Shown: positions 1-30,846, numbered from the stretch's first letter. The stretch is DNA of 64,000 nucleotides from Obrimoposthia wandeli (GCA_977020255.1 CDROCS010006901.1:124001-188000), one strand, 5' to 3'. Numbers and translations are program-made. Notes: a model not told the origin generated them from the letters alone.

Positions 1-403
1 TGTGACTTATATAGTCAACTATGTGCTGTCAATCAGCACTCTCGAAATCAAATCGTGAGTCCGGCTTGGCGGCAGCTGCTACAACGGATCGATTTAAATT
101 AATTGCACGTAAATGTGCTTACCTTTTTCTGCTGACGTTTTTCTTTCTGCTGACGTTAGCAGATTTCTAAATTATTCCCGTTTTTTGCTTTTTGCACTTT
201 TGGGTTAATTAACTTAACTTTTATACATTTCACACCATACACGACCTTCGTGGTCCTCCTAATTTTTACCCTAAATTCCACTAATTTTGATTCTAAAACT
301 AAATTTAATATTTTAATTTAATTTTCAACCTTGCTTTCAAGGATTTTTATTTTAGTATTTAATCGACTAAAATATTTAAATTTCTTAATTCTCAAACCTA
401 ACA
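1..403 (-). repeat. 3' LTR (U3-proximal 403 bp visible)
   Basis: No mismatch seen by eye against 17365-17767; ends CCTAACA (TGTTAGG on the element strand) directly beside the PPT. Confidence 0.95.
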
Positions 404-1435: not shown

Positions 1436-1459
1436 GGATTGAAGACATTTTCGGATGAT

Positions 1460-1774
1460 CTACACATCAATTAGTCCTAACAATACTAATAGCATCATCA
1501 GTGCCGGTGTATGGTACTGTATGGTGTAATTGTGGATTTCGTTAAACCAGGAACTATTTCCGTGGTTGGAGCCTATTTCCTGTGCTCCCGTTATCGGCAT
1601 TAAACAACTTAACAAGCCTATCGCTAGCAATCTTTGGTATTGAAAGCTGGGCACTGTTGTTGTAGCTTCATTTCTTTCTCGTTGTTGCTTCCTCTTTTCG
1701 GTGTATTTCTCTATTTCTCGAACGAGTAACGGTTTGAAATCCGTATTTGGTCTATTCTGTTTGATGTAGACCAT
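1460..1774 (-). CDS. N-terminal part of the 3' accessory membrane ORF (signal-like segment, N-glycosylation sequons, TM)
   Basis: LLAIGLLSCLMPITGA|QE, sequons NSS and NYT, ALMMLLVLLGLIDV; after TAG 1460-1462 eight sense codons lead in frame to ATG 1435. Confidence 0.55.
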   Translation of the reverse strand: MVYIKQNRPNTDFKPLLVREIEKYTEKRKQQRERNEATTTVPSFQYQRLLAIGLLSCLMPITGAQEIGSNHGNSSWFNEIHNYTIQYHTPALMMLLVLLGLIDV

Positions 1775-4442
1775 CGCTTCTTCTGGCGAGAATAATTGGA
1801 TTGATTTCCCCTTCGTATTTGTGAATCGGATACGGTATTACACTATCTTTAAGTATCTCAACTTGGAACTGTGCTCCATAGCACATGACAATTGTTTCCA
1901 ATTTACCCATGATGGACAATCCATCGAAATAGGTAACATTCAGCTTAGATATCGGTGTCTTCGCATAATTAATTAAGTTTACTCGTATCTCAGTTGATGA
2001 CGGCCATCGATTTTTTAGTAAAATTATAATTTCGTCGTTTATCGATGTGATCACACTTGGCGCGGATGATACTATTTCAGCATGATATTTTGGCTGGATT
2101 GAGTTGGTCACTTGTTCTCGGATCATATTGATTCTTTGTGGTTTTTTATTTTTAGCTTCCCACTTCCGGTATCCGCTGTCAATGCGTAACTCTGCCGTTG
2201 CTTTGATGATTTTATTGTTAGTCACTTCCGGATGGGTTGGCGAATGGAATCCTTCTATTACGCTCAACCTTACAGATACTTCCGTTTGATCTGTGTCTAA
2301 CCGGTGAGATTCTGGTATACAACATACAATTGTCTTTCCATCAAAGTATTTGGTGTCCATCTGACAAATTATCTTTTCAGTGTCAGCGTCGATTAAATGG
2401 ACTCTCATGATATCTCTTTTCCCATGTGAATTACGTAATACCATTATTACATCGTGGTATTCTTGTTTGAGTCTTTTGGTGTACCATGCAGTATGTGACC
2501 ACCGGCCGGTTCTTTTTTCTTCCTGACTGGCTAGTCCTGCTTCAGTACTGTCATAGTTCTGCCATGCAACTATGTTTGGTGTCAATGTGATTTCGATTAT
2601 CACTTTCTCAGTCGTAAACACATTGGAATTTTGATAAAGTGCTGCGACTAGTGTATTTCCGTCGTAGTATGACACTCTAAGTTCGCACAGAAATTCGTTT
2701 GTCAGTGCATCTTTCACAATGACTTCTTTAGCCACATCTGTGGGTTGTGTTTTTTCGAAAACAACTATTATCTCTTCGTCTTCTTCTAATATCTCTTGTG
2801 GTGCGACGTGTCGGATTACTTCCTTTTCCTCTTGGTACTTCATTCTGAGCATACCAATTCTCGCTGGTTTTTTCTCGCTACCACTCGTCATCATGTTTAT
2901 ATAGTTCCGATCACTTACCATTCGTGTAAGTTTAATGGTATTGGTATTCGATTTCGATTTCTGTGATCTTAACTCATATCGTGACGCATTATCTTTATTT
3001 AGTACTAATTTGCATCGATTTGCATGTACAATCATCGGTTCCTTGTTCCGATTCTCTTCGTTGATTACTTTCAAATTTGTTGAGGTTGTCTGGATCACCT
3101 TGTATGGTCCTTTGTATGGTCTATGAAGTTTAAACGATAGACCTGGTTCGATGACTGGATAAAATATCATCACTTGATCTCCGACTCTAAATTCATGCGG
3201 TTTTGCTTTTTTGTCGTATTGTTCCTTGTAACCTTCTTGATTGAATTTCAACTTCAATCCGGCTTTGGTCCAAGCATCTTGTAACCTTTCCTTCATGACG
3301 ACAATGTATTGTTCAGTTTCTAGGTACTGAGATGTTGGCTCGGTCCACTCCAGATCCATCGGCATATTGTTCTGTCTGAGATACATCAGATAGAATGGTG
3401 TGTGACCCGTCGCCTCTCGAACTGAATTCCTGTAAGCATATAAACATGAAGGTAAATATTTATCCCAATCCTCTTGCTTGTCGGAGCAATAGGATTGTAC
3501 CATCATACATAAAGTTTTATTAAACCTTTCTACCAGACCATCTGTCTGTGGGTGATATGGTGAAGTTTGTAACTTCATGATTCCGAATATCTTCGATACT
3601 GCTTTGATTACTTCTCCAGTGAAGTTCTTACCTTGATCCGTTAACAACTTTCTAGGCACTCCGTATCGAAATATTATCTCTTCTACTAAGATTTGTGCTA
3701 TTGTTTCAGCCTTCTGGTTCTGTATGGGATATGCTTCTACCCATCTCGTCATGTAATCCGTAAATACTATGACATACTTGTTTCCTTTACTTGATTCTCT
3801 CAATGGTCCCAATATATCCATCGCTGTGAATTCCATTGGTGCCAAGGGAACTGGCATTGGTTTCAGTGGAACTTTAGTACGAGTTCCGGTGTCTTTTCTG
3901 GTTAAACATACTTTACATTGTTTACACCATTGTTTTATGTCGTCTTCCATACCATCCCAATGGTACTTCTCTTTGATTCTGGCTATTGTCTTTCGCCCTG
4001 ACAGATGTCCTCCTAGTGTTCCGTCGTGATACTGGATCATCACTGCTGTTTTCAATGACTTCGGAATTACTACTACTATCTTTCCGACATTATTGACAAT
4101 ATACAAGATGCCTTCTTTTATCGAGTATTTTTTCGTCATTTCATCGTTTAGATCTCCTTTCACCAACAATTCTTTAGTTAGACTCAGTTCTTCATCTTCT
4201 TTCTGTTCTTTGATGATCTCTTTGTCTATTTTACCCGTCTTTAGCAAAATCGTCAGTAGATTTGCTTCTCCTTTTTGGTCATTGGTTTCATCTTGTTTTT
4301 CCTCTGGAATTATGTTTCCTTTTTCATCTACATTTGTCAATCTCGACAAACAATCTGCGTTGCCGTTCGACTTTCCGGTTCTATAACGGATTTCTAGATC
4401 GAATTCGGCCAATTTTAGAAACCATCTGTTTAATCTACTCAT
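1752..4442 (-). CDS. pol part 3: RNase H end, integrase (HHCC, DDE, GPY/F) and a ~380-aa C-terminal extension with three repeats
   Basis: H..GGH...CKQC; AMDILGPL, TDQGKNF, QTDGLVERFNKTL; PYKGPYKV; three YxDG-containing repeats. Confidence 0.95.
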   Translation of the reverse strand: MSRLNRWFLKLAEFDLEIRYRTGKSNGNADCLSRLTNVDEKGNIIPEEKQDETNDQKGEANLLTILLKTGKIDKEIIKEQKEDEELSLTKELLVKGDLNDEMTKKYSIKEGILYIVNNVGKIVVVIPKSLKTAVMIQYHDGTLGGHLSGRKTIARIKEKYHWDGMEDDIKQWCKQCKVCLTRKDTGTRTKVPLKPMPVPLAPMEFTAMDILGPLRESSKGNKYVIVFTDYMTRWVEAYPIQNQKAETIAQILVEEIIFRYGVPRKLLTDQGKNFTGEVIKAVSKIFGIMKLQTSPYHPQTDGLVERFNKTLCMMVQSYCSDKQEDWDKYLPSCLYAYRNSVREATGHTPFYLMYLRQNNMPMDLEWTEPTSQYLETEQYIVVMKERLQDAWTKAGLKLKFNQEGYKEQYDKKAKPHEFRVGDQVMIFYPVIEPGLSFKLHRPYKGPYKVIQTTSTNLKVINEENRNKEPMIVHANRCKLVLNKDNASRYELRSQKSKSNTNTIKLTRMVSDRNYINMMTSGSEKKPARIGMLRMKYQEEKEVIRHVAPQEILEEDEEIIVVFEKTQPTDVAKEVIVKDALTNEFLCELRVSYYDGNTLVAALYQNSNVFTTEKVIIEITLTPNIVAWQNYDSTEAGLASQEEKRTGRWSHTAWYTKRLKQEYHDVIMVLRNSHGKRDIMRVHLIDADTEKIICQMDTKYFDGKTIVCCIPESHRLDTDQTEVSVRLSVIEGFHSPTHPEVTNNKIIKATAELRIDSGYRKWEAKNKKPQRINMIREQVTNSIQPKYHAEIVSSAPSVITSINDEIIILLKNRWPSSTEIRVNLINYAKTPISKLNVTYFDGLSIMGKLETIVMCYGAQFQVEILKDSVIPYPIHKYEGEINPIILARRSDGLHQTE

Positions 4443-5215
4443 CTCATCTCTATGTTTATATAAGAACTGTAGTGGTTTGTGATCTGTATACAGGAATACT
4501 TTTGTCCTAGCAAATAGTGTCTATATTGTCTACATGAATACACTATGGCTAGACATTCCTTTTCGATAACAGAGTATCCTCTTTCGGCTCTGTTTAATCC
4601 TCTACTCGCATACGCGATGACGTGTTCTCTTCCTTCGTCATCCTCTTGTCCCAATACTGCTCCTACAGCATAGTTACTTGCATCTGTCATGAGTATGAAT
4701 TGTCGGTTTATATCTGGAAACGCTAATATTGGTGCTTTTATCAGTCTTTCTTTTAAATGCTCGAACGCTTGTTGGGCTTCTTCTCCCCATATGAACTTCT
4801 CATCTTTTCTCGTCAACTTTCTCAGTGGTGTTGGTATATCTGAAAAATGTTCAACAAATCGTCTATAATAATTCGCAAGACCTAAAAAACTCTGTATCTC
4901 TTTAACAGTCTTTGGCGCTAAATGCGCTTTTACTTTCTCGATCTTTGCTGGATCAGGTCGAATGCCTTCTTTCGATACTATATGTCCTAAAAATGTTACT
5001 CGCTCTTTGGCCCATTCGCATTTTGTAGGTTTAACTTTTAATTTAGCGTTTTCCAGTCTTTTAAATACAACTTCAAGATTTTTTAAATGTTCTTCGAACG
5101 TTTTCGAAAATATTATTATGTCATCAATATAAACCATCGTGTTTGCACACGATGCGAGTACAAAATTCATACAACGCTGAAATGTTGCTGGAGCTCCTGT
5201 CAGTCCGAATGGCAT
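4439..5215 (-). CDS. pol part 2: reverse transcriptase C-terminal half and RNase H (frameshifted at both ends)
   Basis: MPFGLTGAPATFQR, YIDD, FLGHIV, TDASNYAVGAVL, YSVIEKECLAIV. Confidence 0.95.
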   Translation of the reverse strand: MPFGLTGAPATFQRCMNFVLASCANTMVYIDDIIIFSKTFEEHLKNLEVVFKRLENAKLKVKPTKCEWAKERVTFLGHIVSKEGIRPDPAKIEKVKAHLAPKTVKEIQSFLGLANYYRRFVEHFSDIPTPLRKLTRKDEKFIWGEEAQQAFEHLKERLIKAPILAFPDINRQFILMTDASNYAVGAVLGQEDDEGREHVIAYASRGLNRAERGYSVIEKECLAIVYSCRQYRHYLLGQKYSCIQITNHYSSYINIEMR

Positions 5216-7125
5216 CTTTTCGCATTCGTATAATCCATCTCCGCAGTTTTGTGTTTATCCTCTTCCTCTATCTCGATTTGCCAGTATCCACTCTGCAAAT
5301 CCAATGTCGTAAAATAATCTGAATTACCCAATTTATCGAGCATCTCTTCGATTCTAGGTAATGGATACACATCTTTTCTTGTGATCTTGTTCAGTTCTCT
5401 GAAATCTATACAGAATCTAATTTTCACATCCTTCTTTTTTACCAACACCACAGGTGCTGAGAATGGCGAAAAACTCGGTCTAATTACTCCTGTTTTAGAC
5501 ATATCTTCAATCTGACTTTTTACTTCATCTTGTAATTGTAATGGTACTCGGTATGGTCTTCTTCTGACTACTTTGTCTTCTGTCAGTGGTATTGTATGTT
5601 TTATGACAGGTGTTTCTCCTATGTCATATGGATTTTTTGCAATTACTTTTGGAAATTTATGTATTAGATCAAGTAATTGTTTCTTTTCTCTAGTTGTCAG
5701 TCTTTCTGATTGGATTACTATTTCTTCGTAATCATTCGTATCTTTATCGAGTTTCATAGCACACACGGTGGGATTCTCCATCTGTGCTATCTTTCCCAAC
5801 CTCATTCCTCTGTATAATAGGATGTCATTGTTGGTTGTATTCATCAGTCTAACTGGTATTTTGTGGTTTTCGATCAGGCATACTGTACTCACAACTGGTA
5901 ATTCGTATTTCTCTATGAAATCTCGTGATGGTTCGAACACAACTGGTCCTTTATCTTCTGATAATGTGTGACCTTGAATGAGAAATTGTGATCTTTTACC
6001 GATTTTTATAGGATTCTCTATAATTACATCAATTTGGTTTATTTGTCTGTTTGATGTGCTATCCTTCAATCTTGGATCTTGTAAATCAATACTTATCCCT
6101 TTAAGTTGTGATAGTACATCCATTCCTAAAATTGTAGGTTCAGGACATTCTTTCATGATTCTAACTGGTATAGTGATCGTATTACGTCCAATTATAAATG
6201 TACATGGTAATATTCCCGTCACTTTTACAGGGTCTCCATTGACCGATACCAAGAATTCATCTGGTTCTGCCATTGTTCGTTTCTGTTCCTCTGTCAAACA
6301 GTCTTCACTTACTATCGAAGCTACAGCACCTGTATCAATTAAGGCTTTTACTCTTAAATTATTTACTCTAATGATAGCTGCTGGTCGCTGTGCTCCATTT
6401 ATGTTTCCCATATGGTATATTGTATTTATCGAATTATTACACTCTGTCAGTCCACTTCCTGTGTTTGGATAGTGGAATCTAATGTTTCTCACTTGTCGAT
6501 CTATTATTCTTCGACAAATCGGACATGATACCATTTCATTCGCACATCTCCGACATGTTCTTACATGTCCGCATGGTAGAAAGGCAACTTCTATTTTGTT
6601 GATCATGCAAACTGCGCATTCCGGATCTTCTAGTACGTATTCCAGTTCATTTATGTACTCTTTCTCTTTTGTTTCAATTGTACTGTCATCTTTATCTCGC
6701 AGTAATTCAAAAATCGATCCGTATCCGTTTCGCGTAGTTTTTATTTTTAATTCTACCAATTCTCTGATTCTTTCTGCTTCTTTTGGATATAATCTTCTCA
6801 CGAATGACACTACCGGTGTGTCTTGTTGAGCCAAAATCTCTTTCCGTGTGATTTGGTATTCGATTATACATTCGGTTTTCTGTTCTTTTTGCTTTATTTT
6901 GTTTTTAAAAGTACAAAATTCGCAAAATTCATGATGTAAAATTTTCTTAGGTAGCTCAAGAGTGTATCTGTCGATAATTCGTTCTTTTTTACACTTGTGG
7001 CATTTAATTACGTCTTTACCATCCTTTTTTATAGCAAAAAGTCCCTTTTTTGCCAATTTTTTAAGTCTTGGATCTTCGAAGGTTACTTCTCGATATTGTT
7101 CGTCACATTCGTTCACTTCTCGCAT
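5200..7125 (-). CDS. pol part 1: degenerate BIR, IAP-type C3HC4 RING, retropepsin 2, RT N-terminal half
   Basis: LAKKGLF..DVIKCHKC..HHEFCEFC; CAVCMINKIEVAFLPCGHVRTCRRCANEMVSCPICR; ALIDTGA...ILGMDVL; RFCIDFRELN, YPLPRIEEML, LDLQSGYWQI. Confidence 0.93.
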   Translation of the reverse strand: MREVNECDEQYREVTFEDPRLKKLAKKGLFAIKKDGKDVIKCHKCKKERIIDRYTLELPKKILHHEFCEFCTFKNKIKQKEQKTECIIEYQITRKEILAQQDTPVVSFVRRLYPKEAERIRELVELKIKTTRNGYGSIFELLRDKDDSTIETKEKEYINELEYVLEDPECAVCMINKIEVAFLPCGHVRTCRRCANEMVSCPICRRIIDRQVRNIRFHYPNTGSGLTECNNSINTIYHMGNINGAQRPAAIIRVNNLRVKALIDTGAVASIVSEDCLTEEQKRTMAEPDEFLVSVNGDPVKVTGILPCTFIIGRNTITIPVRIMKECPEPTILGMDVLSQLKGISIDLQDPRLKDSTSNRQINQIDVIIENPIKIGKRSQFLIQGHTLSEDKGPVVFEPSRDFIEKYELPVVSTVCLIENHKIPVRLMNTTNNDILLYRGMRLGKIAQMENPTVCAMKLDKDTNDYEEIVIQSERLTTREKKQLLDLIHKFPKVIAKNPYDIGETPVIKHTIPLTEDKVVRRRPYRVPLQLQDEVKSQIEDMSKTGVIRPSFSPFSAPVVLVKKKDVKIRFCIDFRELNKITRKDVYPLPRIEEMLDKLGNSDYFTTLDLQSGYWQIEIEEEDKHKTAEMDYTNAKRCHSD

Positions 7126-10100
7126 AACTTCGATATATCTTCAATTCGACTATTCGTTATTACTCTACCTGTTATTAGGGCTGATTCTCCTTTTGGAATC
7201 CCGTCACTGTAATCGAAATCGGGTGCTTTTCCCGTTTGGATTTCTGGTACGTTTGAAGTTTTTAGTTTTAAAAGAAATGGACAATTTGGTGCATCTCTTT
7301 TATGACGTCTCATTGGGTTTTCATTCTGTTCCCATTCTCTAAACTTTACTCTACACCATACGCATCGTACTACTATCTCCTGACCATAACTGCTTGTCGC
7401 GTTTAACATTTCTAAACCTGATCTTGCCATTTTACGTGCCATTCCTTTTGAATAGTACTGTTCTAATATATTTCGTCTCTTTCTCTCGAATCTCATGGGA
7501 TCCCTTTCTGACAGATTTACATATGTTATTTTTCTCCTCGTCGTATCTTGTGGTCCGAAATTTACATTTTTGTAGTGAAGTATCGACTTTGCTAGCGCTT
7601 CCTGTTTTCTGTCTGGGTACGAACCTCCCATACGGAACGTAGTGCATTTTTCCTTTTCGACTATGGGTCCTCTCAACATTTTTATCTCTCTCACTGAACT
7701 GTCATTCTTACAACTCTTGTTGTTTGGTAGTATAATTATTCCTTCAAACATTCGTATTACGTCCATCCCAATCATGACTGGACTTCCGCAATCTGTGAAT
7801 ATTCTAGCATTTAACTGCAATGCTCTTCCATCGATATTCAACGAACATTTCAGTGTTCCTTCCGACACTACATCTGTACCATTCACGTTAACAAATGTCT
7901 GTTTTCTAGGACATACTTCTCTTAATTCTTTTGATGACAAGATTTCTTTACTTAGCACTGATACTGCTGATCCGGTATCAACTTCGGCAAGATATTCTCT
8001 TCCGTTCAATGTTACTGCTACTTGTGGTGGAGCATTTGGATTCTCATTTGATATTCTAGATTTCAGAATTCTTCTGGAATTATCTTTTTTGTCTTTTTCC
8101 TCTGCTTGTGGAATTTCACTGTAGCTCACTTTAGGCCATCTTATCATTAAGATGCCTCTCTTGAACTTTTCCTTCTCTTCCTTCAATTCCTTCATTGGAT
8201 ATAGGTTTAACGCCACTTCTTCCTTGTCTGGTAACGGAATCTTTGATTTTCCTGGTATCTTTGCATATACTTCTGGACTATCATTATCGTCGTCGTTGTC
8301 GTCTCGATAGTTTCTTGGTTCTCGCATCATGGTTCTCGTTTGGTGTTGTTCCTTCTTGAGGGCTCGCAACTCGTTCTCGTGATGATGGTGCATTAGATAT
8401 TTTGCTAAAAATGGAAAACATCCAATTATAAGTTGCCAGGTGATTCCGGTTATCCTGTATAAACTATACGTAGACAACACCTGGGCTATAATTACCTGCA
8501 CAAATTTAATTATAACATAAATACCTATGATACCCGAAAATAGTTGTCCTAAAACAAGGAATTTTCCCCACATCTTTCTAAGTGTCTGATGTGCTGCTTC
8601 CTTGAAATGACTTGGCGATAATAACATATCGAAATTCGCATATCTCGCTCCTGGCGGTAATGCTCGATGTACCATCTCCGTAAGTACTCTGGCTCTTCTT
8701 ACTGGAAACATTATTTCGTTCCACGCCGCTTTTAAATCTTTTTCATTGTACAATCCTGCGTTCTCCATATTTTCCACCGCTTGGAATTTCATTTTACCTT
8801 TAAGGTTCGTCATTCTTATCATCGCTGGGGTTGTCGTTGGCTTTCGATCAGGTAACGTTATCCATAGATTATTCGTCATCTGATATTCAGGTGCCATTAT
8901 ATTAGAGCAGCTGATTTCTTTAGTTGTAGTGTCTTTTGGAAGTAACATTCTCGTGATTGGTTCAACAAAAAGATCTTTTAAATTATACGTTACTGCCAAT
9001 TCGCTCGTACATCGATCTGTTTTTCTCAACTGTACCTCTACTTTATTACACTTGTAAGTATACAATACTTCTCCCATGGTTTTAGCAAATACTCCTTCAT
9101 CCAAGGGTAATAATGGTGCTACCATGTCTGGATTCGTAATAGCTAATGCTAACTTTGTTCTTACGATCTCTTTGTTTAACTGGCAATCTCTTTCGATCAT
9201 CATCCGATATAACTGTTCCATTTGCATCAATCCTTTATGATAATAGAAATCAATTTTATTATTAAAATACGTGTGTAGCTGCATATCTTTAGGTTTTAGC
9301 TTGGTTTCTGCCAATGCTATTGCTTCTTTAGACAAAACTATTCCTGGATAGTTTGTAGTACTAACAGTCATTCCGCATCGCGCTTTGTTTCTCTTTTTAA
9401 TAAATATCAATCCTTCTTCTATTGATGTTGCCATTAACAGTGTAGGTGTCTTTGTCATTGGAATTGGTCTTGTTTCATTTAGCAATCCTTTTCCAACTTT
9501 ATTATACAGGAATCCTTCTCCATCTTTATTATACAGGAATCCTTTTATTTTATTAAAACTAATCTCTTTCAAAAATACTAAAGAGCATTGCTTCGGATTT
9601 ATGTTATACACAATTGTGGATTCACCTGTAAAACAAGATGTATCTGTCATTTTACATTCTGGATACTTCATCATTAGTTGTGTCTTTTTATCAAAATTGG
9701 CGGTCCATGTTTTTAATTCAATTTTGTAAGTTACGTCCATTACTAACTCAGATACTTTGGTTCCACGCACGTTTTTTGTTTCTCCGTCACAAGATCCATC
9801 GGCCCATCGTTGTCCGACTCTCGTGACTGTTTCGTATCGTCTCACTCCAATTTTTACTTCAGGTTTGTAATTCTTGTCTACCTCTATTGTTCCCGTTCGA
9901 AATGCGTCTTCGCAATCTCTCGGCAAAACCTTATGTGCCTTGTACGGTGTGGTAGGTGTGATTTCTGACATAAAACTTCTATGACCACAATAGAATTCGT
10001 GATAACTTGAATGGATTGAACATTCTTTCACTTCTACTTGTGCTTTATCAACATCCTGATACACAAAGTAGTTTTCAACACCTTGAACTTCTAGTTTTGA

Positions 10101-11849
10101 CGGTTGTGACTCTGGGCAGTCTTCGCTGTCAAGCAGTGAATACTTTTGTCCCATCTTTGGTATGCTACAGTCATATGCTATCAATCCTGATGCCTGTTGC
10201 ATTCCCATAAACATTACTAACATCATCATCATCATTGTTGTGGACATATTTGGTGGATTGTTTCTCTCTTTCGGACGGTATTGTTTATTTTCCTTTTGAC
10301 GATTCTCATGACATTGTTCGTCATCGTCTTCATTCATTTCCACAATGATTTTAGCGTAGTCACTTAATTTTGCCCAACCTCCATTTTCGTCAATTCGTCT
10401 CTGTAATACATTCTCTATCAAATACATCGCTTCATTTATTCCTTGTTTGACTTCGTGAGGTTGGCTCGTTCGTTCCGTCAATTGGAAACATAGATATGTG
10501 ATCGCTGTAATTAACTTTTTATTTGTAGTCTGATTTCCGCATAGTCTCGCTAAAACTTCACCGTCATAAAATCTATCTATCGATGCATGGTATACATGAT
10601 TCGCGGTCATTCTCTTTACTGCAGACATCTGTGATCTGACTGCTTTAGTCAAATTGTCTGTTATATCGGTTGTTTCATCTCTGTACATTTTGAACAACTT
10701 CGGCTTCACTTGCCTGAGAATTCCCGTAAGTATATCTTTACTACTTGGAGTTTCCGAATTCATATCACCTCTGATATCTTCATTCCTCTCTGCACTATAC
10801 TGCTCTAATGACGCTGCTAACTGTCCAATACTTAGATGTCTCTCTTCATCAGTTTGTGGTGCTGTTAGAACATTTCGTAATATACTTTCGCCTTTTCTAG
10901 GTCTTCCAGGTCCTCTTCGAAAATACTGATACTCAGTTTGATTCTCTCCTGGATCATACGTTTCACCATTATACTGTATCTCTTGACTTGGTCCTTCTTC
11001 ATGGCCAATCTCTTCACTTTGTCGCATCATTTGCTCTGCTTGTCTATCTTTGTATGCGGCATGCCAAATTGGTGAATCCAAATCTACAATCTCGGAGACT
11101 TCGTCTTCTCCTACTAGTTGGGTTACGGTTTCGTTTTGTCTCACTTGGTTAGCTGTATCCGTGACTTCATCTTGTCTGATTGGAATTATATCTGGTTCTG
11201 GTGGCACCTCGACCACTGGAGTTGTCAACTCATTTTCTAAATTCATGTCTTGTAATTCAGTTACGTACGGTTCTGGTGTGGATGTCTTGTTCCAAGCTTC
11301 AGCTACATCATTATCTCCGCTTTCACTTGAACTGTCTAAAATTTCTATAGGCGTTTTTATCATTTCTAACGCAGAATTCAATATCTCGGTTAATCCTTCA
11401 TTATCTACTAACTCTTGACGTCCTACAGTGATGACATCAATTTTTTCCTCTAATTCATTTCCTATCGGATATCCAAACTCGACTGGTACGTCCTCATCAT
11501 CTAGTGATCTCCCTTTATAATGGAACAACATATTCATTCCATCAATTTCAAGTTTCTCGGCTAACTTTTTCCGAATCGTTTTCATTGTTTGATACACGTT
11601 AAGTTTTTCATGTATTATCTGTCCGGAAATTAATCGAAGTGAAATTTTCATCGTTCCTTTTTGGTTTGATCTCTGTACGTAACGACCATAACCTTTCAAT
11701 AATCCTCGGGTTACTTCTTTGTAACCCAAGTTATCATGACTATGTTTAACCAATTCTGCTCGCACTTCTTCCAATCGGTGCACTTTAATTGTTTGCAATT
11801 TGGCCAAAACTTCTGGAGCTTCACTCGTTTCATCTAACGGTTGATTCAA
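7113..11849 (-). CDS. Multidomain polyprotein: Ub/SUMO-like, AT-hook, Bcl-2-like, signal peptide + chuvirus-like envelope glycoprotein + TM, retropepsin 1, BIR
   Basis: 1578-aa ORF (track start is TTG); RRGPGRPRK; RIDENGGWAKL; LIAYDC..CGH..GSCDG..YFNNKIDF..RDCQL..GEVLYTYKC; AEVDTGS..MIGMDVI; VRCVWCRVKFREWEQNENPMRRHKRDAPNCPFL. Confidence 0.88.
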   Translation of the reverse strand: MNQPLDETSEAPEVLAKLQTIKVHRLEEVRAELVKHSHDNLGYKEVTRGLLKGYGRYVQRSNQKGTMKISLRLISGQIIHEKLNVYQTMKTIRKKLAEKLEIDGMNMLFHYKGRSLDDEDVPVEFGYPIGNELEEKIDVITVGRQELVDNEGLTEILNSALEMIKTPIEILDSSSESGDNDVAEAWNKTSTPEPYVTELQDMNLENELTTPVVEVPPEPDIIPIRQDEVTDTANQVRQNETVTQLVGEDEVSEIVDLDSPIWHAAYKDRQAEQMMRQSEEIGHEEGPSQEIQYNGETYDPGENQTEYQYFRRGPGRPRKGESILRNVLTAPQTDEERHLSIGQLAASLEQYSAERNEDIRGDMNSETPSSKDILTGILRQVKPKLFKMYRDETTDITDNLTKAVRSQMSAVKRMTANHVYHASIDRFYDGEVLARLCGNQTTNKKLITAITYLCFQLTERTSQPHEVKQGINEAMYLIENVLQRRIDENGGWAKLSDYAKIIVEMNEDDDEQCHENRQKENKQYRPKERNNPPNMSTTMMMMMLVMFMGMQQASGLIAYDCSIPKMGQKYSLLDSEDCPESQPSKLEVQGVENYFVYQDVDKAQVEVKECSIHSSYHEFYCGHRSFMSEITPTTPYKAHKVLPRDCEDAFRTGTIEVDKNYKPEVKIGVRRYETVTRVGQRWADGSCDGETKNVRGTKVSELVMDVTYKIELKTWTANFDKKTQLMMKYPECKMTDTSCFTGESTIVYNINPKQCSLVFLKEISFNKIKGFLYNKDGEGFLYNKVGKGLLNETRPIPMTKTPTLLMATSIEEGLIFIKKRNKARCGMTVSTTNYPGIVLSKEAIALAETKLKPKDMQLHTYFNNKIDFYYHKGLMQMEQLYRMMIERDCQLNKEIVRTKLALAITNPDMVAPLLPLDEGVFAKTMGEVLYTYKCNKVEVQLRKTDRCTSELAVTYNLKDLFVEPITRMLLPKDTTTKEISCSNIMAPEYQMTNNLWITLPDRKPTTTPAMIRMTNLKGKMKFQAVENMENAGLYNEKDLKAAWNEIMFPVRRARVLTEMVHRALPPGARYANFDMLLSPSHFKEAAHQTLRKMWGKFLVLGQLFSGIIGIYVIIKFVQVIIAQVLSTYSLYRITGITWQLIIGCFPFLAKYLMHHHHENELRALKKEQHQTRTMMREPRNYRDDNDDDNDSPEVYAKIPGKSKIPLPDKEEVALNLYPMKELKEEKEKFKRGILMIRWPKVSYSEIPQAEEKDKKDNSRRILKSRISNENPNAPPQVAVTLNGREYLAEVDTGSAVSVLSKEILSSKELREVCPRKQTFVNVNGTDVVSEGTLKCSLNIDGRALQLNARIFTDCGSPVMIGMDVIRMFEGIIILPNNKSCKNDSSVREIKMLRGPIVEKEKCTTFRMGGSYPDRKQEALAKSILHYKNVNFGPQDTTRRKITYVNLSERDPMRFERKRRNILEQYYSKGMARKMARSGLEMLNATSSYGQEIVVRCVWCRVKFREWEQNENPMRRHKRDAPNCPFLLKLKTSNVPEIQTGKAPDFDYSDGIPKGESALITGRVITNSRIEDISKLCEK

Positions 11850-11869
11850 CGTCTCCTTAGCTTCACTAA

Positions 11870-13846
11870 TTATCTTTTTACATCTTCCATACTCGTAGCA
11901 TTTCTCGCTGCTTCCACATGATCAGTCATAGGTTGTGCGTTACACGTTTTCTCTATTGGTGTCTCATACGCTTCTAGTATTCTATTCATTAAATCATTCA
12001 TCTCTTCTCTCGAGTGTAGACTTTTCTCTTGTTTCGACAACGTAGATGAATTCGCCATCTTTGTATGTGGTGAATCTTTAATTATTCCCAACATTCGTTC
12101 AAATTTACTATCACTATCTTCAAAATCTATTTCGCGTCGAAGCTCGGTCTCGCGATTCCTATCACTGTCATCGCTTACATAACTAAAATTTCCTTTCGGT
12201 TTCGGCGAACTCTCTCGACTATTTGTCTTGTCGACATTATTATTATTATATCTACCAGAATTATTATATATCTCAGCTCCTTGCTGTCCTACGTAATTAT
12301 TGTATCTCTCAGCTCCTTGCTGTCTGTCTGCATAGTTATTGTATCTACCTGGTGACTGTTGTCTATCTGTATACTGATTATTCAGTCTCCATGGCTGTGG
12401 AGTATATCCACCACCTCTATTCCATGGCGGAGGTGAATTATATCCTCTATAATTATTTCCAAAATTATTATTACCGAAATTATTATTTCCAAATCTGTTA
12501 GCTCCGAACTCTTTACTTCTCGTACAATCTCTCGAATAGTGACCCATTTGTTTACACGTGTAACACATTATTCTCCCTCGAATATCTATCTTATTTTGTT
12601 CATCTTCAAACTGTACTCGACGACTATTCTGTCTATTATCATAGCGTCCTCTAAAATCATTTCTTCGGAAATTCGATTCAAAACCGCTTCCTCGATTATT
12701 GAATCTTCCGTCACTATTTCCTGTATTATTTCCAAATCGAGAGTCACTTCGCTCTCCTCTGTTGGCGTTATAATTCCTATCGTCTCCTCTCCAAGGTTGG
12801 CGATTTCCGGAATTATCTCTATTAAATCTATTCCTGGAATCATCTCTATTTCTATTCCACGAATCATTATTATTTCTACCTCTTGAATCATCTCGATTCC
12901 TGTTCCAAGACTCACTATTATTTCTACCTCTCGAATCATCTCGATTCCTACTTCGGAAATTATCTCTATTTCCGTTACTGGATTCATCTACTTTTTCAAA
13001 CTTATTTTGTCCATAATTTCGATTCTGAAAATTACTCGGTTCTGTTTTATTCACGAAGACCTTTGTCTTATCGTCGTCACCTGCAGTCATTGCGTAAATT
13101 GCCAATGCTGCATTATTTTTTATATTTTTCTCAATCTCTCTCGCCTTTCGTACGGCATTATCAAAATCATTTGTATCCGATACTGCTAATAACACTTTAA
13201 TATCCTTTTTCAATCCTCCTCTAAATATATCTAACAAAACCTCTGCCATTTCATTTTGGTTCCGGTCATTTTCCGCTGCTTGTGCTTCTGGAGCTACAGG
13301 ATTACCGTCCTGATTTCTCATTATTCTTCTTGGGTACGCTCTTGCGGCCAAGGTTCTCAAAACATATGCGTATTCATTCACGCCTTCATCATGTTTCTGT
13401 TTCCGTTCTCTCATGAGTCGCTTATTTACTTTGGCTAAGTCTCCTAATACCAATTTTCCAATAAAAGCATTTTCCAACGTTGGCCAGTCTAAACGTTCTG
13501 CTTCTGTCAAATGTTTATACACTTCAAGTGCTAATCCGGTTAAATGTGCCTGTACTCTGACACATTTTTCTCTATCGTTCCATCCTTGAACATCTGCACA
13601 ACTCGAATATTCTGCGAGAAAGTCACAAATACTTTCCTCATCTCCTTTAAACTTTGTAATCTGCAATGATCCTGAAAAATTGGGTCTCAACGTCGCATTT
13701 AAAGCTTGTGCCAACTGCTCGGCATTCATTTCACCTACATTATTTCCTGCATTAATATCTGCTTGAGCTCCTGGGTGAGCCATATTTTCAGCTATATCCT
13801 CTTCAACTATTCCTTCAATATTATTTACTTGAACTTCTTCAATCAC
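11870..13846 (-). CDS. gag: Gag (retrotransposon capsid domain, R/N/D/G-rich repeats, CCHC zinc knuckle)
   Basis: ITKFKGDEESICDFLAEYSSCADVQGW capsid-like region; CYTCKQMGHYSRDC; track start is GTG, first ATG at 13783. Confidence 0.92.
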   Translation of the reverse strand: MIEEVQVNNIEGIVEEDIAENMAHPGAQADINAGNNVGEMNAEQLAQALNATLRPNFSGSLQITKFKGDEESICDFLAEYSSCADVQGWNDREKCVRVQAHLTGLALEVYKHLTEAERLDWPTLENAFIGKLVLGDLAKVNKRLMRERKQKHDEGVNEYAYVLRTLAARAYPRRIMRNQDGNPVAPEAQAAENDRNQNEMAEVLLDIFRGGLKKDIKVLLAVSDTNDFDNAVRKAREIEKNIKNNAALAIYAMTAGDDDKTKVFVNKTEPSNFQNRNYGQNKFEKVDESSNGNRDNFRSRNRDDSRGRNNSESWNRNRDDSRGRNNNDSWNRNRDDSRNRFNRDNSGNRQPWRGDDRNYNANRGERSDSRFGNNTGNSDGRFNNRGSGFESNFRRNDFRGRYDNRQNSRRVQFEDEQNKIDIRGRIMCYTCKQMGHYSRDCTRSKEFGANRFGNNNFGNNNFGNNYRGYNSPPPWNRGGGYTPQPWRLNNQYTDRQQSPGRYNNYADRQQGAERYNNYVGQQGAEIYNNSGRYNNNNVDKTNSRESSPKPKGNFSYVSDDSDRNRETELRREIDFEDSDSKFERMLGIIKDSPHTKMANSSTLSKQEKSLHSREEMNDLMNRILEAYETPIEKTCNAQPMTDHVEAARNATSMEDVKR

Positions 13847-14424
13847 TACTGGATTGGCAATTTCAATTTCTTCTGGGTTTTGAACTTCAAGATTATCAAT
13901 TTCTTCTGGGTTTATGTCACCAATTAACTCAGTCAGATCAAAACTATCGGTTGAAACTGCTGATTGATTTACGTCTCTTTCTGATACGTTTTCTTCGACT
14001 CTAGTCTTTTCTGTTACTTTGTTATCTGTTTGGGGAACCTGTTCAATTCGGTTAACTTTATTATTATTTGTCTCTTCCTTGGGAATCTGGCTTTGTCTTC
14101 AAGTATTAAACGCGGGTCCTTTTCTATTATCCGTTGTCTTATCAATTATGTATTCGTTTACGATATCAATTTACTTATTATTTTTATCTTATTTCACAAT
14201 TCTTATTTTACGATTTTTTATCTCTTTAATTAGTTCGAGGACAGAGTCTCCCGACTTAACCTATTCAATTAATTACTTCGAGTATCAATCCACTCGATTC
14301 TCACTTTATCAAATTTATTTACGATTTTATCTTTTTAATTAGTTCGAGGACAGAGTCTCCCGACTTAGCTTATTCAATTAATTACTTCGAGTATCAATCC
14401 ACTCTATTCTCACTATCAAATTTA

Positions 14425-15019
14425 CTGACTCGAGGAACAAATCCACTCGACTTCTCAAAACCTATCAAATTCTTAACTTCGAGGAACAAATCTACCCGAT
14501 TTCTCAAAACTTATCAACTTCTTAACTTCGAGGAACAAATCTACCCGATTTCTCAAAAACTTATCAAATTCTTAACTTCGAGGAACAAATCTACTCGATT
14601 TCTCAACACTTATCAAATTCTTAACTTCGAGGAACAAATCTACCCGATTTCTCAAAAACTTATCAAATTCTTAACTTCGAGGAACAAATCTACTCGATTT
14701 CTCAACACTTATCAAATTCTTAACTTCGAGGAACAAATCTACCCGATTTCTCAAAAACTTATCAAATTCTTAACTTCGAGGAACAAATCTACTCGATTTC
14801 TCAACACTTATCAAATTCTTAACTTCGAGGAACAAATCTACCCGATTTCTCAAAAACTTATCAAATTCTTAACTTCGAGGAACAAATCTACTCGATTTCT
14901 CAACACTTATCAAATTCTTAACTTCGAGGAACAAATCTACTCGATTTCTCAACACTTATCAAATTCTTAACTTCGAGGAACAAATCTACCCGATTTCTCA
15001 AAAACTTATCAAATTCTTA
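14425..15019. repeat. 49/50-bp tandem array (~12 copies, mostly alternating A/B variants) in the 5' leader
   Basis: Unit CTTAACTTCGAGGAACAAATCTAC(C/T)CGATTTCTCAA(AA/C)ACTTATCAAATT. Confidence 0.95.
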
Positions 15020-15039
15020 TCTCAATTTACTTATATCTT

Positions 15040-15235: not shown

Positions 15236-15263
15236 ACGTGAATTCGCTGTGTCCGACGAGCTA

Positions 15264-15281
15264 TCCTCACTCGGGGCACCA
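15264..15281 (-). promoter_or_regulatory. Primer-binding site, elongator tRNA-Met type
   Basis: Element strand TGGTGCCCCGAGTGAGGA; plus strand TCCTCACTCGGGGCACCA resembles the 3' end of animal elongator tRNA-Met (..GATCCTCACACGGGGCACCA, recalled from memory). Confidence 0.85.
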
Positions 15282-15346
15282 CTTTAATATGTTGGGGTTT
15301 CTATACGAAACTCGGTATAGATCCTCTTGAGTGCGGAGGGCCCCAA

Positions 15347-15358
15347 CGTGAGTTCGAT
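15347..15358 (-). promoter_or_regulatory. Putative primer activation signal (complement of the tRNA-Met T-arm)
   Basis: Plus strand CGTGAGTTCGAT equals the tRNA-Met segment just 5' of the PBS-paired region; next to the stem GTTGGGG(15291-97)/CCCCAAC(15341-47). Confidence 0.6.
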
Positions 15359-15769
15359 TAGAAGCAGGTCTTAAAGTTGGTCGTGGCCTACTTAGTTTTA
15401 TGGTTGCCTAATCTCTTGTACTATCTGAAGGTATTTGATTTGATGTCTCTTATTCTGAAGGATGCAAAAACAACTTGTTCTAATGTAGGAAATTGTTTAT
15501 TTGTAATTCACGAACTAAAACACAACAATACGTTTATGTACGTATTTTCTAAAAAGTATAGTAAAATTCCTAAGACTTCTGTAAGTCTCTACAACAAGTG
15601 GGGATGAACCACGTATCGATTTTATGTTAAGGGTGATCGAGTTTTTAGAGTCGTTCTTCTAACTCGCGAATAAGCTCAAGTTAAGATTTTCAAATTAATG
15701 TGACTCTTATGTCAAACTCTAACTTTAATTCCCAATTTAACTTTAATGGCAACTTTTATCTTTATACCA

Positions 15770-16436
15770 AAACTATGGCAATTTAGAAAAAACTTCTCTT
15801 CAAACTTTTATGGCAATTTAGACAAAAACTTCTCTTCAAACTTTTATAGCAATTTAGACAAAAACTTCTCTTCAAACTTTTATGTCAATTTAGACAAAAA
15901 CTTCTCTTCAAACTTTTATGGCAATTTAGACAAAAATTTCTCTTCAAACTTTTATGGCAATTTAGACAAAAACTTCTCTTCAAACTTTTATAGCAATTTA
16001 GACAAAAACTTCTCTTCAAACTTTTATGTCAATTTAGACAAAAACTTCTCTTCAAACTTTTATGGCAATTTAGACAAAAACTTCTCTTCAAACTTTTATG
16101 CAATTTAGACAAAAACTTCTCTTCAAACTTTTATGTCAATTTAGACAAAAACTTCTCTTCAAACTTTTATGGCAATTTAGACAAAAACTTCTCTTCAAAC
16201 TTTTATGGCAATTTAGACAAAAACTTCTCTTCAAACTTTTATAGCAATTTAGACAAAAACTTCTCTTCAAACTTTTATGTCAATTTAGACAAAAACTTCT
16301 CTTCAAACTTTTATGGCAATTTAGACAAAACTTCTCTTCAAACTTTTATGGCAATTTAGACAAAAACTTCTCTTCAAACTTTTATGGCAATTTAGACAAA
16401 AACTTCTCTTCAAACTTTTATGGCAATTTAGACAAA
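15770..16436. repeat. 36-bp tandem array (~18 copies) inside the LTR
   Basis: Unit AACTTTTAT(GG/AG/GT)CAATTTAGACAAAAACTTCTCTTCA. Confidence 0.95.
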
Positions 16437-16489
16437 TTCTAATGTCAAACTTTATGACAATTTTAGGACAATTTAGACAATTTTATTAA

Positions 16490-16768
16490 TCAAACTTTAT
16501 GATAACTTTAGGACAATTGAGACAAATTTTAGTAATCAAACTTTATGATAACTTTAGGACAATTGAGACAAATTTTAGTAATCAAACTTTATGATAACTT
16601 TAGGACAATTGAGACAAATTTTAGTAATCCAACTTTATGATAACTTTAGGACAATGGAGACAAATTTTAGTAATCAAACTTTATGATAACTTTAGGACAA
16701 TTGAGACAAATTTTAGTAATCAAACTTTATGATAACTTTAGGACAATTGAGACAAATTTGAGTAATCT
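16490..16768. repeat. 46-bp tandem array (~6 copies) inside the LTR
   Basis: Unit CAAACTTTATGATAACTTTAGGACAATTGAGACAAATTTTAGTAAT. Confidence 0.95.
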
Positions 16769-17369
16769 CTCTTACGTTTTTTGTCTCGAGGTTGAGGTAT
16801 CCTGAAGCGTTCCGGAATATACTGAGATCGAACACAAAAACCGATCGGCTGACTGAATTGGAATTTCCGAATGAAAATTCGCTGATATAGTGCTGACTGG
16901 AACAACGATTGAACTGGTTTACAAGCTCTGCTCCGTGATAGATCGAGATTTGTATGTCGCTGTTACGACGTTGCCCAAATCCGTGATAGATTGATCTTTA
17001 AGTCTTGTGTTGTATTGTCGCGCTTCGTCTATTCCGTCTTCTGTCTGGTCTCAGGAGTATTGATTGAGTGCGGTATTGATTTCTTATTTTTTCTGGGACT
17101 GTGTTTTGATTTACACTTTGTTGCTTTATATCTTTTCTAAGACTGAATTTTTCTCCAATTCAATTTCGCACTCTCTGCTAATTTCGAGGCTTATTTCTCT
17201 TTTCTAATCTGCCAAAGTGCTTTACCTGGAGAAATAGGTTAACTGCACTTAACTAAAAATTGCTCACCTCTGGACGATTAACACCTGCTTTTCCTCCAAT
17301 TCAACTTTTCTCTATCAGAGCCTCCGAGACTTGTTTCTCTCGTTTTTTGTTTTGTAGGAAGTGCTGTGA

Positions 17370-17377
17370 CTTATATA
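17370..17377 (-). promoter_or_regulatory. Candidate LTR TATA box
   Basis: Element strand TATATAAG ~390 bp into U3; TATAAAG at ~17124-17130 is an alternative. Confidence 0.3.
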
Positions 17378-20300
17378 GTCAACTATGTGCTGTCAATCAG
17401 CACTCTCGAAATCAAATCGTGAGTCCGGCTTGGCGGCAGCTGCTACAACGGATCGATTTAAATTAATTGCACGTAAATGTGCTTACCTTTTTCTGCTGAC
17501 GTTTTTCTTTCTGCTGACGTTAGCAGATTTCTAAATTATTCCCGTTTTTTGCTTTTTGCACTTTTGGGTTAATTAACTTAACTTTTATACATTTCACACC
17601 ATACACGACCTTCGTGGTCCTCCTAATTTTTACCCTAAATTCCACTAATTTTGATTCTAAAACTAAATTTAATATTTTAATTTAATTTTCAACCTTGCTT
17701 TCAAGGATTTTTATTTTAGTATTTAATCGACTAAAATATTTAAATTTCTTAATTCTCAAACCTAACAATTTTATTAATTCTTGAATCTATAATTTGAGTT
17801 TCATCAAAAAATATTTTATTGAAAAATTATTCTTTAGGTTCAATTTTAAAAATATATAATATTAGGTATTGATATTTTAATAGTAAATGAGTTTAGAATA
17901 AAATAATGAATAGGGCTTGAAATAAAATTATGGGTAGGGTTATACGCATAGATGTATGTAAGCAATAGACTAATATATGGAATCAATATAGAAATATTAT
18001 TACAAATATTAGGAAGAAACTTTTGATTCCTACTTCAATTAGAGAAAATAATTATTTTTATTCATTTTTAGACCACATTGTAACTTTCTGCAACAAATAT
18101 CTGTGTTTCTGTGATTTTAACGAAGGTCGAAAATTTACTAGACCATAGTTTAAATTTAATAAACTTTTTCTAATTGGCCGTAGTTTAAAATTTATGAAAT
18201 CATATTGCAACTATTTGCAACTTATGTGCAAGTTGTATGCAATAAATGTCTTAGTTCTGAATTCCTTGAATTTAAATTTATGTAAACGCTTTCCACTCAC
18301 AAATAAAAGTAAATGAAATTACTCAAAATAAGCTATTTTTAAATTTGACAAATACTTCTAAAGAAAATAATCTTTGTGTTAAATTTTTTTAAAAATTGCT
18401 AAGCCTTTTAAAAATTTAAACCAAAATGATTTTTGGAGAAAAAATTGACGTTAACATTTAAAATTTGAATTTGCACACACAAATATTGATGCGTTTAAAG
18501 AAAATGAGATGAAAACTGACGTACTATATTACATACTGACCATCAAATTAAATTGGCTTTAACGTACTCGGCTGAAATTTGAGCTACATTCCATAACCTT
18601 AACGAACTCGATTAAAATATGTTCTACATATGGTTTCCATGGTAATGACAAATGTTCTCAAAATAAAACTGGTCTAGATCTCTCGGAAGGTACCCACAGG
18701 CTTTCTACTATTTGTTTAAGTATTCAGATCCTACTACTTACTACCGATAAGAAATTTTATTCAAATTTAAACAATACTCTTCAAAAAGTTTGTGTATCAA
18801 TAAGAAATTGATATATGCTTATTTTCTCGTTTAAAAAATCTATATCTATTATTAGTATTTTTTGACATATATGGATTTAATAGATAGAAATTTATACGAT
18901 ATCTAAAGAATATATTTCAATTACCATGTAGGTGTTATTGAGTTTTAATAATATTCGATTATACTTAATGTAAACTTATCTAATACAGGTTCCTCTAATG
19001 CTTTTTCTAACCCTTGTCATTAATTCATTTATTTATGTTTAATTTGATTTAAACTAAATGGGGTATTATTATTATGAATTATTATATTGTACACATACAT
19101 ATTTTGTAAGTATTTCATTATATATTCCTTATATATTTATCTGCACACCATTAGACTTATCTGAGGATACATACATACACACATACATAAATTTAAATAA
19201 AACACTATTCCCTATCGCTAATTTATTTTACTTAATTTTGATTCTTAAAGGTCTGGTGCTACTACTGACCCAACTACTCACCTGCTACTCATGTTGATGG
19301 TACTGAACCGTTTTACTGTATATTTAGTGGCAGTGTTATTAATAAAAGATGTTGAAATTTAAAATATATTTTTCTATAAAAAGAATTCAAATACAAATGT
19401 TGTAAAAATGTTGTACCTGTAATAATAAAAAATAACTTGTGTCTTTGTAGGTTGGTTCTCGAAAGTCTGACCAAGATTAGACTATGTGATTTATGATGGG
19501 CTTTAATAAGTAGTTTTTTATAAATTGAAGGAGGACCAAGTTTTGTGGTCTATCCTATAGTGACAATATGACCTTATGACCACCTTAAAAATACAAATCT
19601 AATATAGTAAATGGGAACACTTGCCAACGCAGTCGGCCATGATGAGTTATGCCATAATCGGAATGAAGGCACCTATCCGTTTAAAACGGATATACTAGGG
19701 AGAACGACCATGAAAAATGATGTGCTCATGAGAAACTTTCGTCGAACACCAGATAATGCAGACTGTAAAAAGGTGCTCATTGAAATACTGGTTTATATAA
19801 ATTATGATTCAACTTAAAATTTGTTTTTTAAAATTCTTAAGTTTAGTCATTTAAACGCTAATTAATTGTTCTTTGTGATATTTTCTCTGTTTATTAAAAT
19901 CTCGATCAATGTAACTGCACCTATAGTTGCAAATTAGGTATATAATAGGATGCCATTAAACTGAAGAATTTTTTTAAAACTATCAGAAATCCATGCTGAA
20001 AAACTCGAATATTTTATGTTTGTTTACTGAGAACGACAGCATCATTAAAATACAATAAGAATAGAGTTGAAGCTATGGTAAGAGACAGTTGACTACTCCC
20101 TTTAAGAGCAATCGAAGGTAAACTAAAGCCTGTACATGTTTGATGCTTATCGACAGATAACTCATCCAACCCTAAATTAATGAGGCATATGTTCAAAGAC
20201 AAGATTATTGACTTTCATTACCCTTAACACACCATTCCCAGACCAGTAGTTTTTCATATAGAGAAGCTCATGCAGCCTATTTTTGTTGTTGTTGTTGATG

Positions 20301-30790: not shown

Positions 30791-30846
30791 GATAAAGAAA
30801 TCAGAAACGAAAACTATCTTAATATTTTATTAGGCATGTATATCAA

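Follow-up and report, generated by a model that had tools for sequence, protein, structure and literature searches.

What is an inhibitor-of-apoptosis protein (IAP) doing inside the polyprotein of a retroelement, and where did it come from? Both questions are raised by a 64,000-nucleotide (nt) stretch of Obrimoposthia wandeli DNA (GCA_977020255.1, CDROCS010006901.1:124001-188000; hereafter the window), in which positions 1-17,767 form, on the minus strand, a single long terminal repeat (LTR) element. A first-pass annotation had read positions 6500-7500 as a complete BIR-BIR-RING module placed between two aspartic proteases (PR1 and PR2), and had suggested that these enzymes could release it as a free E3 ubiquitin ligase. 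Our analysis indicates that the module is under selection and has kin among the genes of Maverick/Polinton elements in the same genome. The function that we favor, and consider likely, is that of anti-apoptotic cargo of a giant Burro-type Gypsy/Metaviridae LTR element: a RING-IAP, released by proteases, that would lower caspase-dependent death.

On inspection of the sequence, the motifs quoted for the module lie on the minus strand where they had been placed, with VRCVWC at 7370-7353 and HKRDAPNCPFL at 7304-7272 in the first BIR domain (BIR1), and LAKKGLF (7056-7036), DVIKCHKC (7014-6991) and HHEFCEFC (6936-6913) in the second (BIR2). BIR1 scores well above the cut-off of the Pfam BIR profile (37.2 versus 22.9 bits, E-value 4e-9). 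Its closest single-domain match in the PDB is BIR1 of DIAP1 (E-value 7e-9), and its predicted structure aligns to BIRs with Z scores of 9-10.7. The RING is likewise recovered by zf-C3HC4_3 (PF13920), with 45.1 bits against a cut-off of 27 (E-value 8e-12, ~6627-6496), and its profile matches the RINGs of cIAP1, cIAP2 and XIAP with E-values of 6e-14 to 6e-12. BIR2, described as degenerate in the first-pass annotation, gives no Pfam match in the window frame, yet it adopts a BIR fold in an AlphaFold (AF2) model, with a predicted local distance difference test score (pLDDT) of 79-91 over the core and a model mean of 71. The top 13 matches of this model, among 48,161 chains searched, are all BIR domains (Z 5.8-7.3), and in an unbroken natural copy BIR2 counts as a second BIR stretch. 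Its three cysteines are invariant, and its histidine nearly so, in an alignment of ten relatives; the non-canonical H-x3-C spacing of its ligands is common to the whole subfamily. A BIR1 with the C-x2-C...H-x6-C ligand set, a second BIR and an IAP-type RING confirm the module as a real member of the IAP (BIRC) family.

Two BIRs and a RING are thus present, but the proposed BIR-BIR-RING order is incomplete, as a UBA domain between BIR2 and the RING gives BIR-BIR-UBA-RING. We make the UBA call with moderate confidence. A structure search with this part gives the XIAP UBA as the top match (2kna; Z 5.4, root-mean-square deviation 2.3 Å over 59 residues), a Z score of limited weight by itself in so small a helical domain; its profile aligns weakly to the cIAP1 UBA (independent E-value 1.2), and it has no match to Pfam UBA. 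The layout had been likened to those of baculovirus IAP3 and DIAP1; with a UBA, it is rather cIAP- or XIAP-like. BIR1 also departs from the type I and type II classes of BIR. Type II BIRs, which bind the IAP-binding motif (IBM), are defined by E/Q76 and W/H80 in the available text of PMC8917759. BIR1 has R76 and D80, and the V/L80 of type I is absent too.

Reading frame, selection and protease release

The module is not complete in the window copy, where BIR1 and BIR2-RING lie in different frames. This break is private to the window copy, like those in its reverse transcriptase (RT) and RNase H, because the 7113-7140 junction is open in 19/19 of the closest other copies; there, a single natural frame runs from upstream of the BIR1 cysteines through PR2. 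Co-translation of BIR1 with BIR2-RING, on which the first-pass proposal depended, is thereby upheld for the family. The same 19 copies rule out a programmed frameshift at 7113-7140. From PR1 through PR2 the frame is uninterrupted in 16 of the 19, and also in 16 of a more distant set of 21 copies, of which 20 had been picked for long frames.

Selection was assessed on the 32 copies whose frame is unbroken between PR1 and PR2, using variants common to at least three of them. Synonymous variants outnumbered non-synonymous ones in BIR1 (11:6), BIR2 (6:4), UBA (7:1) and RING (8:1), with a dN/dS of ~0.10 for the four domains pooled, and in PR1 (13:1) and PR2 (6:0). In the two linkers outside the module, the counts were 9:14 and 2:3. 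Zinc ligands are retained in 31-32 of the 32 copies, and the catalytic Asp of both proteases in all 32. All four IAP domains and both proteases are under purifying selection. Because variants in the domains are mostly silent and those in the linkers are not, we argue that the module is functional.

The flanking proteases are genuine, each with Pfam matches and an intact catalytic motif. They are 30% identical to one another and stem from an old duplication. A recurring motif, [IV]-x-[MT]-[LIM], lies 31-36 residues before the catalytic Asp in four of the nine proteases of four related polyproteins, a level reached by 111 of 20,000 random placements. Candidate sites of this kind flank the IAP on both sides (IKML and INTI), and cuts at the two could plausibly free an IAP of ~420 residues (~48 kDa). 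A predicted PR1-PR2 complex passes our mark (0.69 versus 0.00 for the best control; at least 77% of contacts agree between runs, partner pLDDT at least 77), which is reached by 51/78 solved and 2/108 mismatched microbial pairs. As the dimer is the textbook form of a retropepsin, the result shows likeness only and is not evidence for an intramolecular heterodimer.

The four related polyproteins, from LTR elements in public assemblies (P0004, P0006, P0013 and P0097), are the closest relatives of PR2 and the segment that follows it. In three of them a PF24664 envelope stands in frame before the protease(s), and none has an IAP. With one to four retropepsins each, they suggest a wider Burro-like lineage. 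These IAP-less elements carry two, three, four and one proteases, and since 3/4 have at least two, tandem proteases are a trait of the lineage rather than specific to the IAP. The proposal of protease release thus stands in part: co-translation, intact and selected proteases and flanking candidate motifs speak for it, but the proteases were not made for the IAP. In P0006, zinc fingers that look C2H2-like by eye sit between the first two proteases, which suggests that the inter-protease slot takes different cargo. One of the four polyproteins is labelled as a protein of a Flavobacteriaceae metagenome-assembled genome; this is probably a mis-binned eukaryotic contig.

Burro elements and the function of the module

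Burro/GYPSM1 elements of planarians are described, in the available text of PMC6431247, as having an ORF (open reading frame) of ~5,000 residues with Gag, a Ubi/SUMO-like domain, a BCL2-like domain, an in-frame mononegavirus-type env, PR, a dUTPase-like domain and RT; the same text records that a BIR in Burro was noted in 2007. The BIR+RING region of Burro1, 'B-IAP', is reported to shield the stem cells of planarians from apoptosis mediated by caspases (Lee et al. 2026, as cited in the accessible part of PMC13465017). An IAP in a Burro-type element is already known in kind.

The element in the window resembles Burro1/GYPSM1 and Burro2-4 in being a giant LTR element with thousands of copies and an ORF of ~5,000 residues. 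Both carry the BIR and RING cargo and, between Gag and Pol, an in-frame mononegavirus-type envelope; they also share Gag itself, a ubiquitin-like domain (here a match below cut-off), PR, RT, RNase H and integrase (IN). It differs in having one CCHC knuckle, versus the 2-3 in the Burro descriptions available, and in the two dual-specificity phosphatase (DSP) domains found in the tail of this family. The window copy measures ~20 kb, versus >30 kb. Two proteases, a second BIR and a UBA are present here and do not appear in the Burro descriptions consulted, although the original papers may have them. Burro1 itself has MATH_TRAF, ankyrin repeats and three CCHC knuckles; Pfam scans of the ORFs in the window and of another copy's tail gave no match to MATH or ankyrin.

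If the module is indeed anti-apoptotic cargo, the membrane anchor of the envelope would return the downstream half of the polyprotein to the cytosol, and the element's proteases would dimerize and cut at the flanking motifs. The IAP so released would function chiefly as a RING E3 in dimeric form, its UBA binding ubiquitin, and caspase-dependent death would be lowered in the cell expressing the element, as reported for B-IAP. Binding of caspases or their regulators probably would not involve the classical IBM pocket, since BIR1 lacks the signature of a type II groove and BIR2 is non-canonical; these features make the classical mechanism doubtful.

Several observations weigh against this reading. 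In the AF2 model of the whole module (mean pLDDT 56.8), the RING and linkers are of low confidence, and with a pLDDT of ~30 the RING fold is not confidently predicted. At the position of cIAP1 Phe616 the RING tail carries Ile, and a Phe follows two residues later; as Phe616 is required for ubiquitin transfer in cIAP1 (PMC6349121, available text), E3 activity may be weak or absent. Nor does the RING end in a free C terminus with an aromatic residue at that position; its tail runs on into PR2 and, if cut at the candidate site, would extend ~30 residues past the last Cys. Tails in the comparison set are of 13 residues (116/141 RINGs), and those of the Maverick copies are of 18. Since the Maverick copies share the shifted Phe and end naturally 18 residues past the Cys, a longer tail may be tolerated in this subfamily. 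The placement test for the cleavage motif is only suggestive, as the motif was defined by eye on the same sequences, and it is absent at that spacing for five of the nine proteases of the relatives. Membership in Burro is assigned by architecture, and a possible Bcl-2-like region, with a BH2-like motif where the Burro BCL2-like domain would be expected, ahead of the envelope, gave no significant match in Pfam, PDB, Atlas or with a host Bcl-2 profile. Finally, the copies used for the selection analysis were partly chosen for open frames, and their shared variants are non-independent.

Alternatively, the module might serve the element itself, as an E3 that also reads ubiquitin and acts during its life cycle, in particle budding, in Gag or Env turnover or in the removal of host restriction or immune-signalling factors, rather than against caspases. 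This fits the lack of a type II signature in BIR1, when 207/392 comparison BIRs have one, and the finding that constraint is strongest in the UBA and RING; the ubiquitin-like domain and the two phosphatase domains of other copies would suit interference with signalling. We nonetheless regard it as unlikely, given that both BIRs are conserved and under selection and that the BIR+RING of Burro1 reportedly protects against caspase-mediated apoptosis (PMC13465017, accessible part). Rather improbable, in our judgment, is a module that works while fused to the polyprotein or protease and tethered to the membrane, the protease pair being a duplication of the lineage that gives no clean release. IAP RING activity needs packing of the C-terminal tail in the dimer (PMC6349121, available text), with which a PR2 still attached would presumably interfere, and a motif lies at the usual distance before PR2. 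What speaks for fusion is that 3/4 IAP-less relatives have 2-4 proteases and that the cleavage motifs are weakly defined.

That the module is a decaying relic, passively carried, seems very improbable. The window copy is broken within it, BIR2 is divergent, and the BIR1 groove and RING tail are non-canonical, all of which could be taken for decay. The BIR2 spacing, however, is a trait of the subfamily, and purifying selection in the four domains among the 32 copies, together with the near-universal retention of zinc ligands, largely rules out this explanation.

Few transposon proteins have, like the Burro IAP, been reported to benefit the stem cells of their host. The present data show that selection also maintains an IAP module in another family of different build, with a full BIR-BIR-UBA-RING architecture and predicted ends for the released protein.

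Kinship with Maverick/Polinton genes

The same IAP subfamily occurs in this genome as a free, intronless gene in two Maverick/Polinton families. Its neighbors there are an A32 ATPase, an rve integrase, pPolB, an adenain-like protease, a weak jelly-roll capsid match and a TBP-like gene. The Maverick versions are stand-alone genes of ~300-340 residues with their own stop, whereas the LTR IAP lies inside a polyprotein; their BIR1 has Q76 and F80, closer to type II than the R76 and D80 of the LTR copies. LTR and Maverick IAPs are 35-37% identical end to end and 60% identical over the RING, and among the proteins compared the Maverick genes are the best matches of the LTR module over the UBA and RING. 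For the BIRs, the best matches in the genome are loci that by eye appear survivin-like and BIRC6-like, followed by the Maverick IAP genes. Maverick/Polinton families with IAP and TBP-like genes are very high-copy (L073-L078), and one of them has lost BIR2 while keeping BIR1, UBA and RING.

With cIAP1/2, XIAP, DIAP1 and baculovirus IAP3, the element IAP shares the BIR fold, a UBA-like helical domain and an IAP-type RING, including the Arg after the last Cys and the V-R of the RING tail. It differs from the cellular RING-IAPs and IAP3 in that neither of its two BIRs is type II, the second having H-x3-C, and in lacking a CARD; its RING tail is extended with Ile at the Phe616 position, it is embedded in a polyprotein, and it belongs to a separate clade. 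This clade unites LTR and Maverick IAPs with six stand-alone proteins from public assemblies, to the exclusion of cellular-type IAPs. Its SH-like approximate likelihood ratio test (SH-aLRT) support is 95 for the RING alone with 135 others and 100 for whole proteins with 25 others, in quick trees without bootstrap (two Maverick rows, with a RING not fitting the pattern, were dropped from the RING tree), and 100/100 in a careful tree with eight others. The data neither establish nor reject LTR and Maverick IAPs as sister groups (approximately unbiased test, P = 0.26). For the six stand-alone relatives, scans of viral and metagenome contigs gave no relative. One caveat is that the trees were built without a confirmed planarian cellular RING-IAP, and hence the clade could represent 'flatworm IAPs' captured twice.

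No cellular RING-IAP was found in the host, in searches crowded by repeats in which 71-150 of 12,000-20,000 candidates were scored with exon-by-exon matching. Among the non-redundant hits opened (L021-L032, L079-L088, L103, L105, L106, L134-L137), only the survivin-like and BIRC6-like loci looked cellular by eye. The remaining loci held Maverick-type or LTR-type IAP sequence, with Maverick surroundings established for part of them. A PF21290 search of the host gave 0 matches. RING-IAPs have been reported absent from flatworms (PMC13159474, available text), where the flatworm rows consulted are parasites and the supplement does not include Schmidtea, Dugesia or Macrostomum. In the parts of the sources available, IAP and Bcl2 homologues are recorded in adintoviruses (PMC8502044), and Mavericks are described as expanded in Dugesia (bioRxiv 10.64898/2025.12.11.693146).

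Other links between the two kinds of element involve more than the IAP. Near their IAP gene, Maverick elements of the same family also have a DSP gene, which is 32% identical to the LTR-element DSP in a comparison of the two. At L134, ~3-5 kb beyond window position 1, IAP, TBP-like and DSP genes form a broken cluster of Maverick type, in which the IAP gene is ~3 kb past the 3' LTR. At another locus (L137:1411-2364), an ORF resembling the Maverick major capsid protein runs in frame into UBA-RING-PR2 of the LTR family. The shared DSP, the adjoining Maverick IAP and the chimeric junction provide circumstantial support for exchange.

By sequence, LTR and Maverick IAPs belong to one mobile-element subfamily, which could have arisen by transfer from LTR element to Maverick, by transfer from Maverick to LTR element or by separate captures from the host. 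We tentatively raise the possibility, doubtful as it is at present, of a virus-to-virus acquisition in which a Maverick/Polinton IAP, already fashioned into a tool against cell death, was inserted whole into the inter-protease slot, perhaps together with the DSP; the LTR IAP would then not be a gene captured from the host. The kinship of an LTR-element IAP to free Maverick IAP genes in the same genome appears to be new; no Burro-Maverick IAP link was found in the literature searched, although the original Burro papers may report an origin. With the nearest in-genome kin being Maverick/Polinton genes, the question of origin becomes testable. If the acquisition occurred, a DNA virus-like element and a retroelement with an env have exchanged genes, and the stem-cell protection credited to Burro would be a function of viral origin that one mobile element handed to another, unrelated one and that was then lent to the host. 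If, in addition, the host has no cellular RING-IAP, its supply of RING-IAPs would come wholly from tens of thousands of mobile-element copies.

Structure of the element and its neighborhood

Features of the LTR element are collected in the table.

Table. Features of the LTR element in the window (positions counted from the first nucleotide of the window)
Feature	Position	Strand	Basis or remark
3' LTR start, runs off window	1..403	-	403/403 nt identical to first 403 nt of 5' LTR
RNase H end, integrase (H2C2, rve), C-terminal extension	1752..4520	-	Pfam scan
Site lacking ~1.26 kb that encodes two DSP domains elsewhere	1788..1789	-	segment present in 8/8 other copies examined
RT and RNase H, frameshifted in window copy	4439..5442	-	RVT_1, RT_RNaseH; ORF breaks near 5200-5254 and 4439-4520
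Conserved segment between PR2 and RT	5776..6033	-	also kept in related elements; no profile match
Aspartic protease PR2, DTGA 6336-6325	6097..6390	-	RVP, gag-asp_proteas above cut-off
Candidate cleavage motif INTI, C-terminal side of IAP	6418..6429	-	31 residues before PR2 Asp; putative
IAP-type C3HC4 RING with tail V-R-N-I-R-F	6472..6627	-	zf-C3HC4_3; tail comparison
UBA domain, XIAP/cIAP type (moderate confidence)	6685..6849	-	structure match, weak profile alignment
BIR2, divergent, C-x2-C-x18-H-x3-C	6913..7101	-	alignment of relatives; AF2; structure search
Frame break between BIR1 and BIR2	7113..7140	-	overlap of ORFs 7113-11921 and 5200-7140
BIR1, C-x2-C-x16-H-x6-C, not type II (R76, D80)	7272..7493	-	Pfam BIR; structure; PDB match
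Candidate cleavage motif IKML, N-terminal side of IAP, just past PR1	7674..7685	-	recurring motif at domain boundaries
Aspartic protease PR1, DTGS 7979-7968	7752..8021	-	Asp_protease_2 above cut-off
Envelope: hydrophobic leader, chuvirus/mononegavirus-type fusion glycoprotein, membrane anchor; in frame with PR1	8292..10235	-	PF24664, E-value 4e-95
Possible degenerate Bcl-2-like region, BH2-like NGGW at 10385-10374	10290..10760	-	motif and position only
Ubiquitin-like domain, weak	11490..11639	-	Pfam ubiquitin, E-value 0.008, below cut-off; position as Burro Ubi/SUMO-like domain
Gag ORF, one CCHC zinc knuckle	11870..14098	-	zf-CCHC, E-value 7e-6
Putative primer-binding site, begins TGG, 8 nt past LTR end	15265..15281	-	read from sequence
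5' LTR, TG...CA, ~2.48 kb, internal tandem repeats	15290..17767	-	matches 3' LTR

When the flank beyond the window is included, the two LTRs are 99.2% identical over 1,853 nt. The element is bounded by a target-site duplication of 4 nt, AAAT; the near-identical LTRs and the duplication point to a recent insertion. These two features, with the order PR-RT-RNase H-IN, place the element in Ty3/Gypsy (Metaviridae). The putative primer-binding site may be one for tRNA-Met. The element is abundant in this 1.35-Gb genome: DNA matches were 96-100% identical in 40/40 scored (the best 40 of 3,869 candidates), and protein matches to PR1 were 100% identical in 150/150 scored (the best 150 of 19,746 candidates).

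Open frames of 5,478 and 4,985 codons were seen among these 150 copies, the longer one including PR1, and Gag is in frame with the downstream ORF in 11 of 12 long-frame copies, indicating that the plan of the family is a single polyprotein. Its order is Gag, ubiquitin-like domain, envelope, PR1, BIR-BIR-UBA-RING, PR2, RT, RNase H, IN and tail. At the Gag junction (11870-11921), all 20 of the closest copies including that of the window (L033-L052) share an offset of one base, which is either a defect inherited in a lineage mobilized in trans or a programmed shift. The sublineage with this offset has been recently amplified, and would accordingly be either non-autonomous or reliant on such a shift.

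The conserved segment between PR2 and RT is probably the dUTPase-like domain described for Burro, judging from its position and the available text of PMC6431247. The 1.26-kb segment that the window copy lacks contains two DSPc stretches in other copies (L065-L072; E-value 1e-40). In the region 398-4520, the polyprotein after the integrase consists of two to three similar beta-rich repeats, with the same candidate cleavage motif between them and hydrophobic segments at the end; these repeats have no Pfam match. Tandem-repeat arrays occupy 14200-15250, in the 5' leader, and 15770-16770, inside the LTR, and vary in length between copies.

Outside the element, a host TDP-43 (TARDBP) gene lies at 22020-23400, 4 kb from the 5' LTR, apparently with few exons. 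Its best named relatives are cestode proteins (46-49% identity), and two other proteins reach 60-63%. These relatives accord with a flatworm host, and in combination with the type of element they suggest a planarian. The remainder of the window, 25186-64000, is made up of a ~10.3-kb unit repeated ~3.7 times at ~98% identity, each unit with a fragment of ~400 nt that matches the 3' part of eukaryotic large-subunit rRNA (at 30794, 41134, 51489 and 61884).

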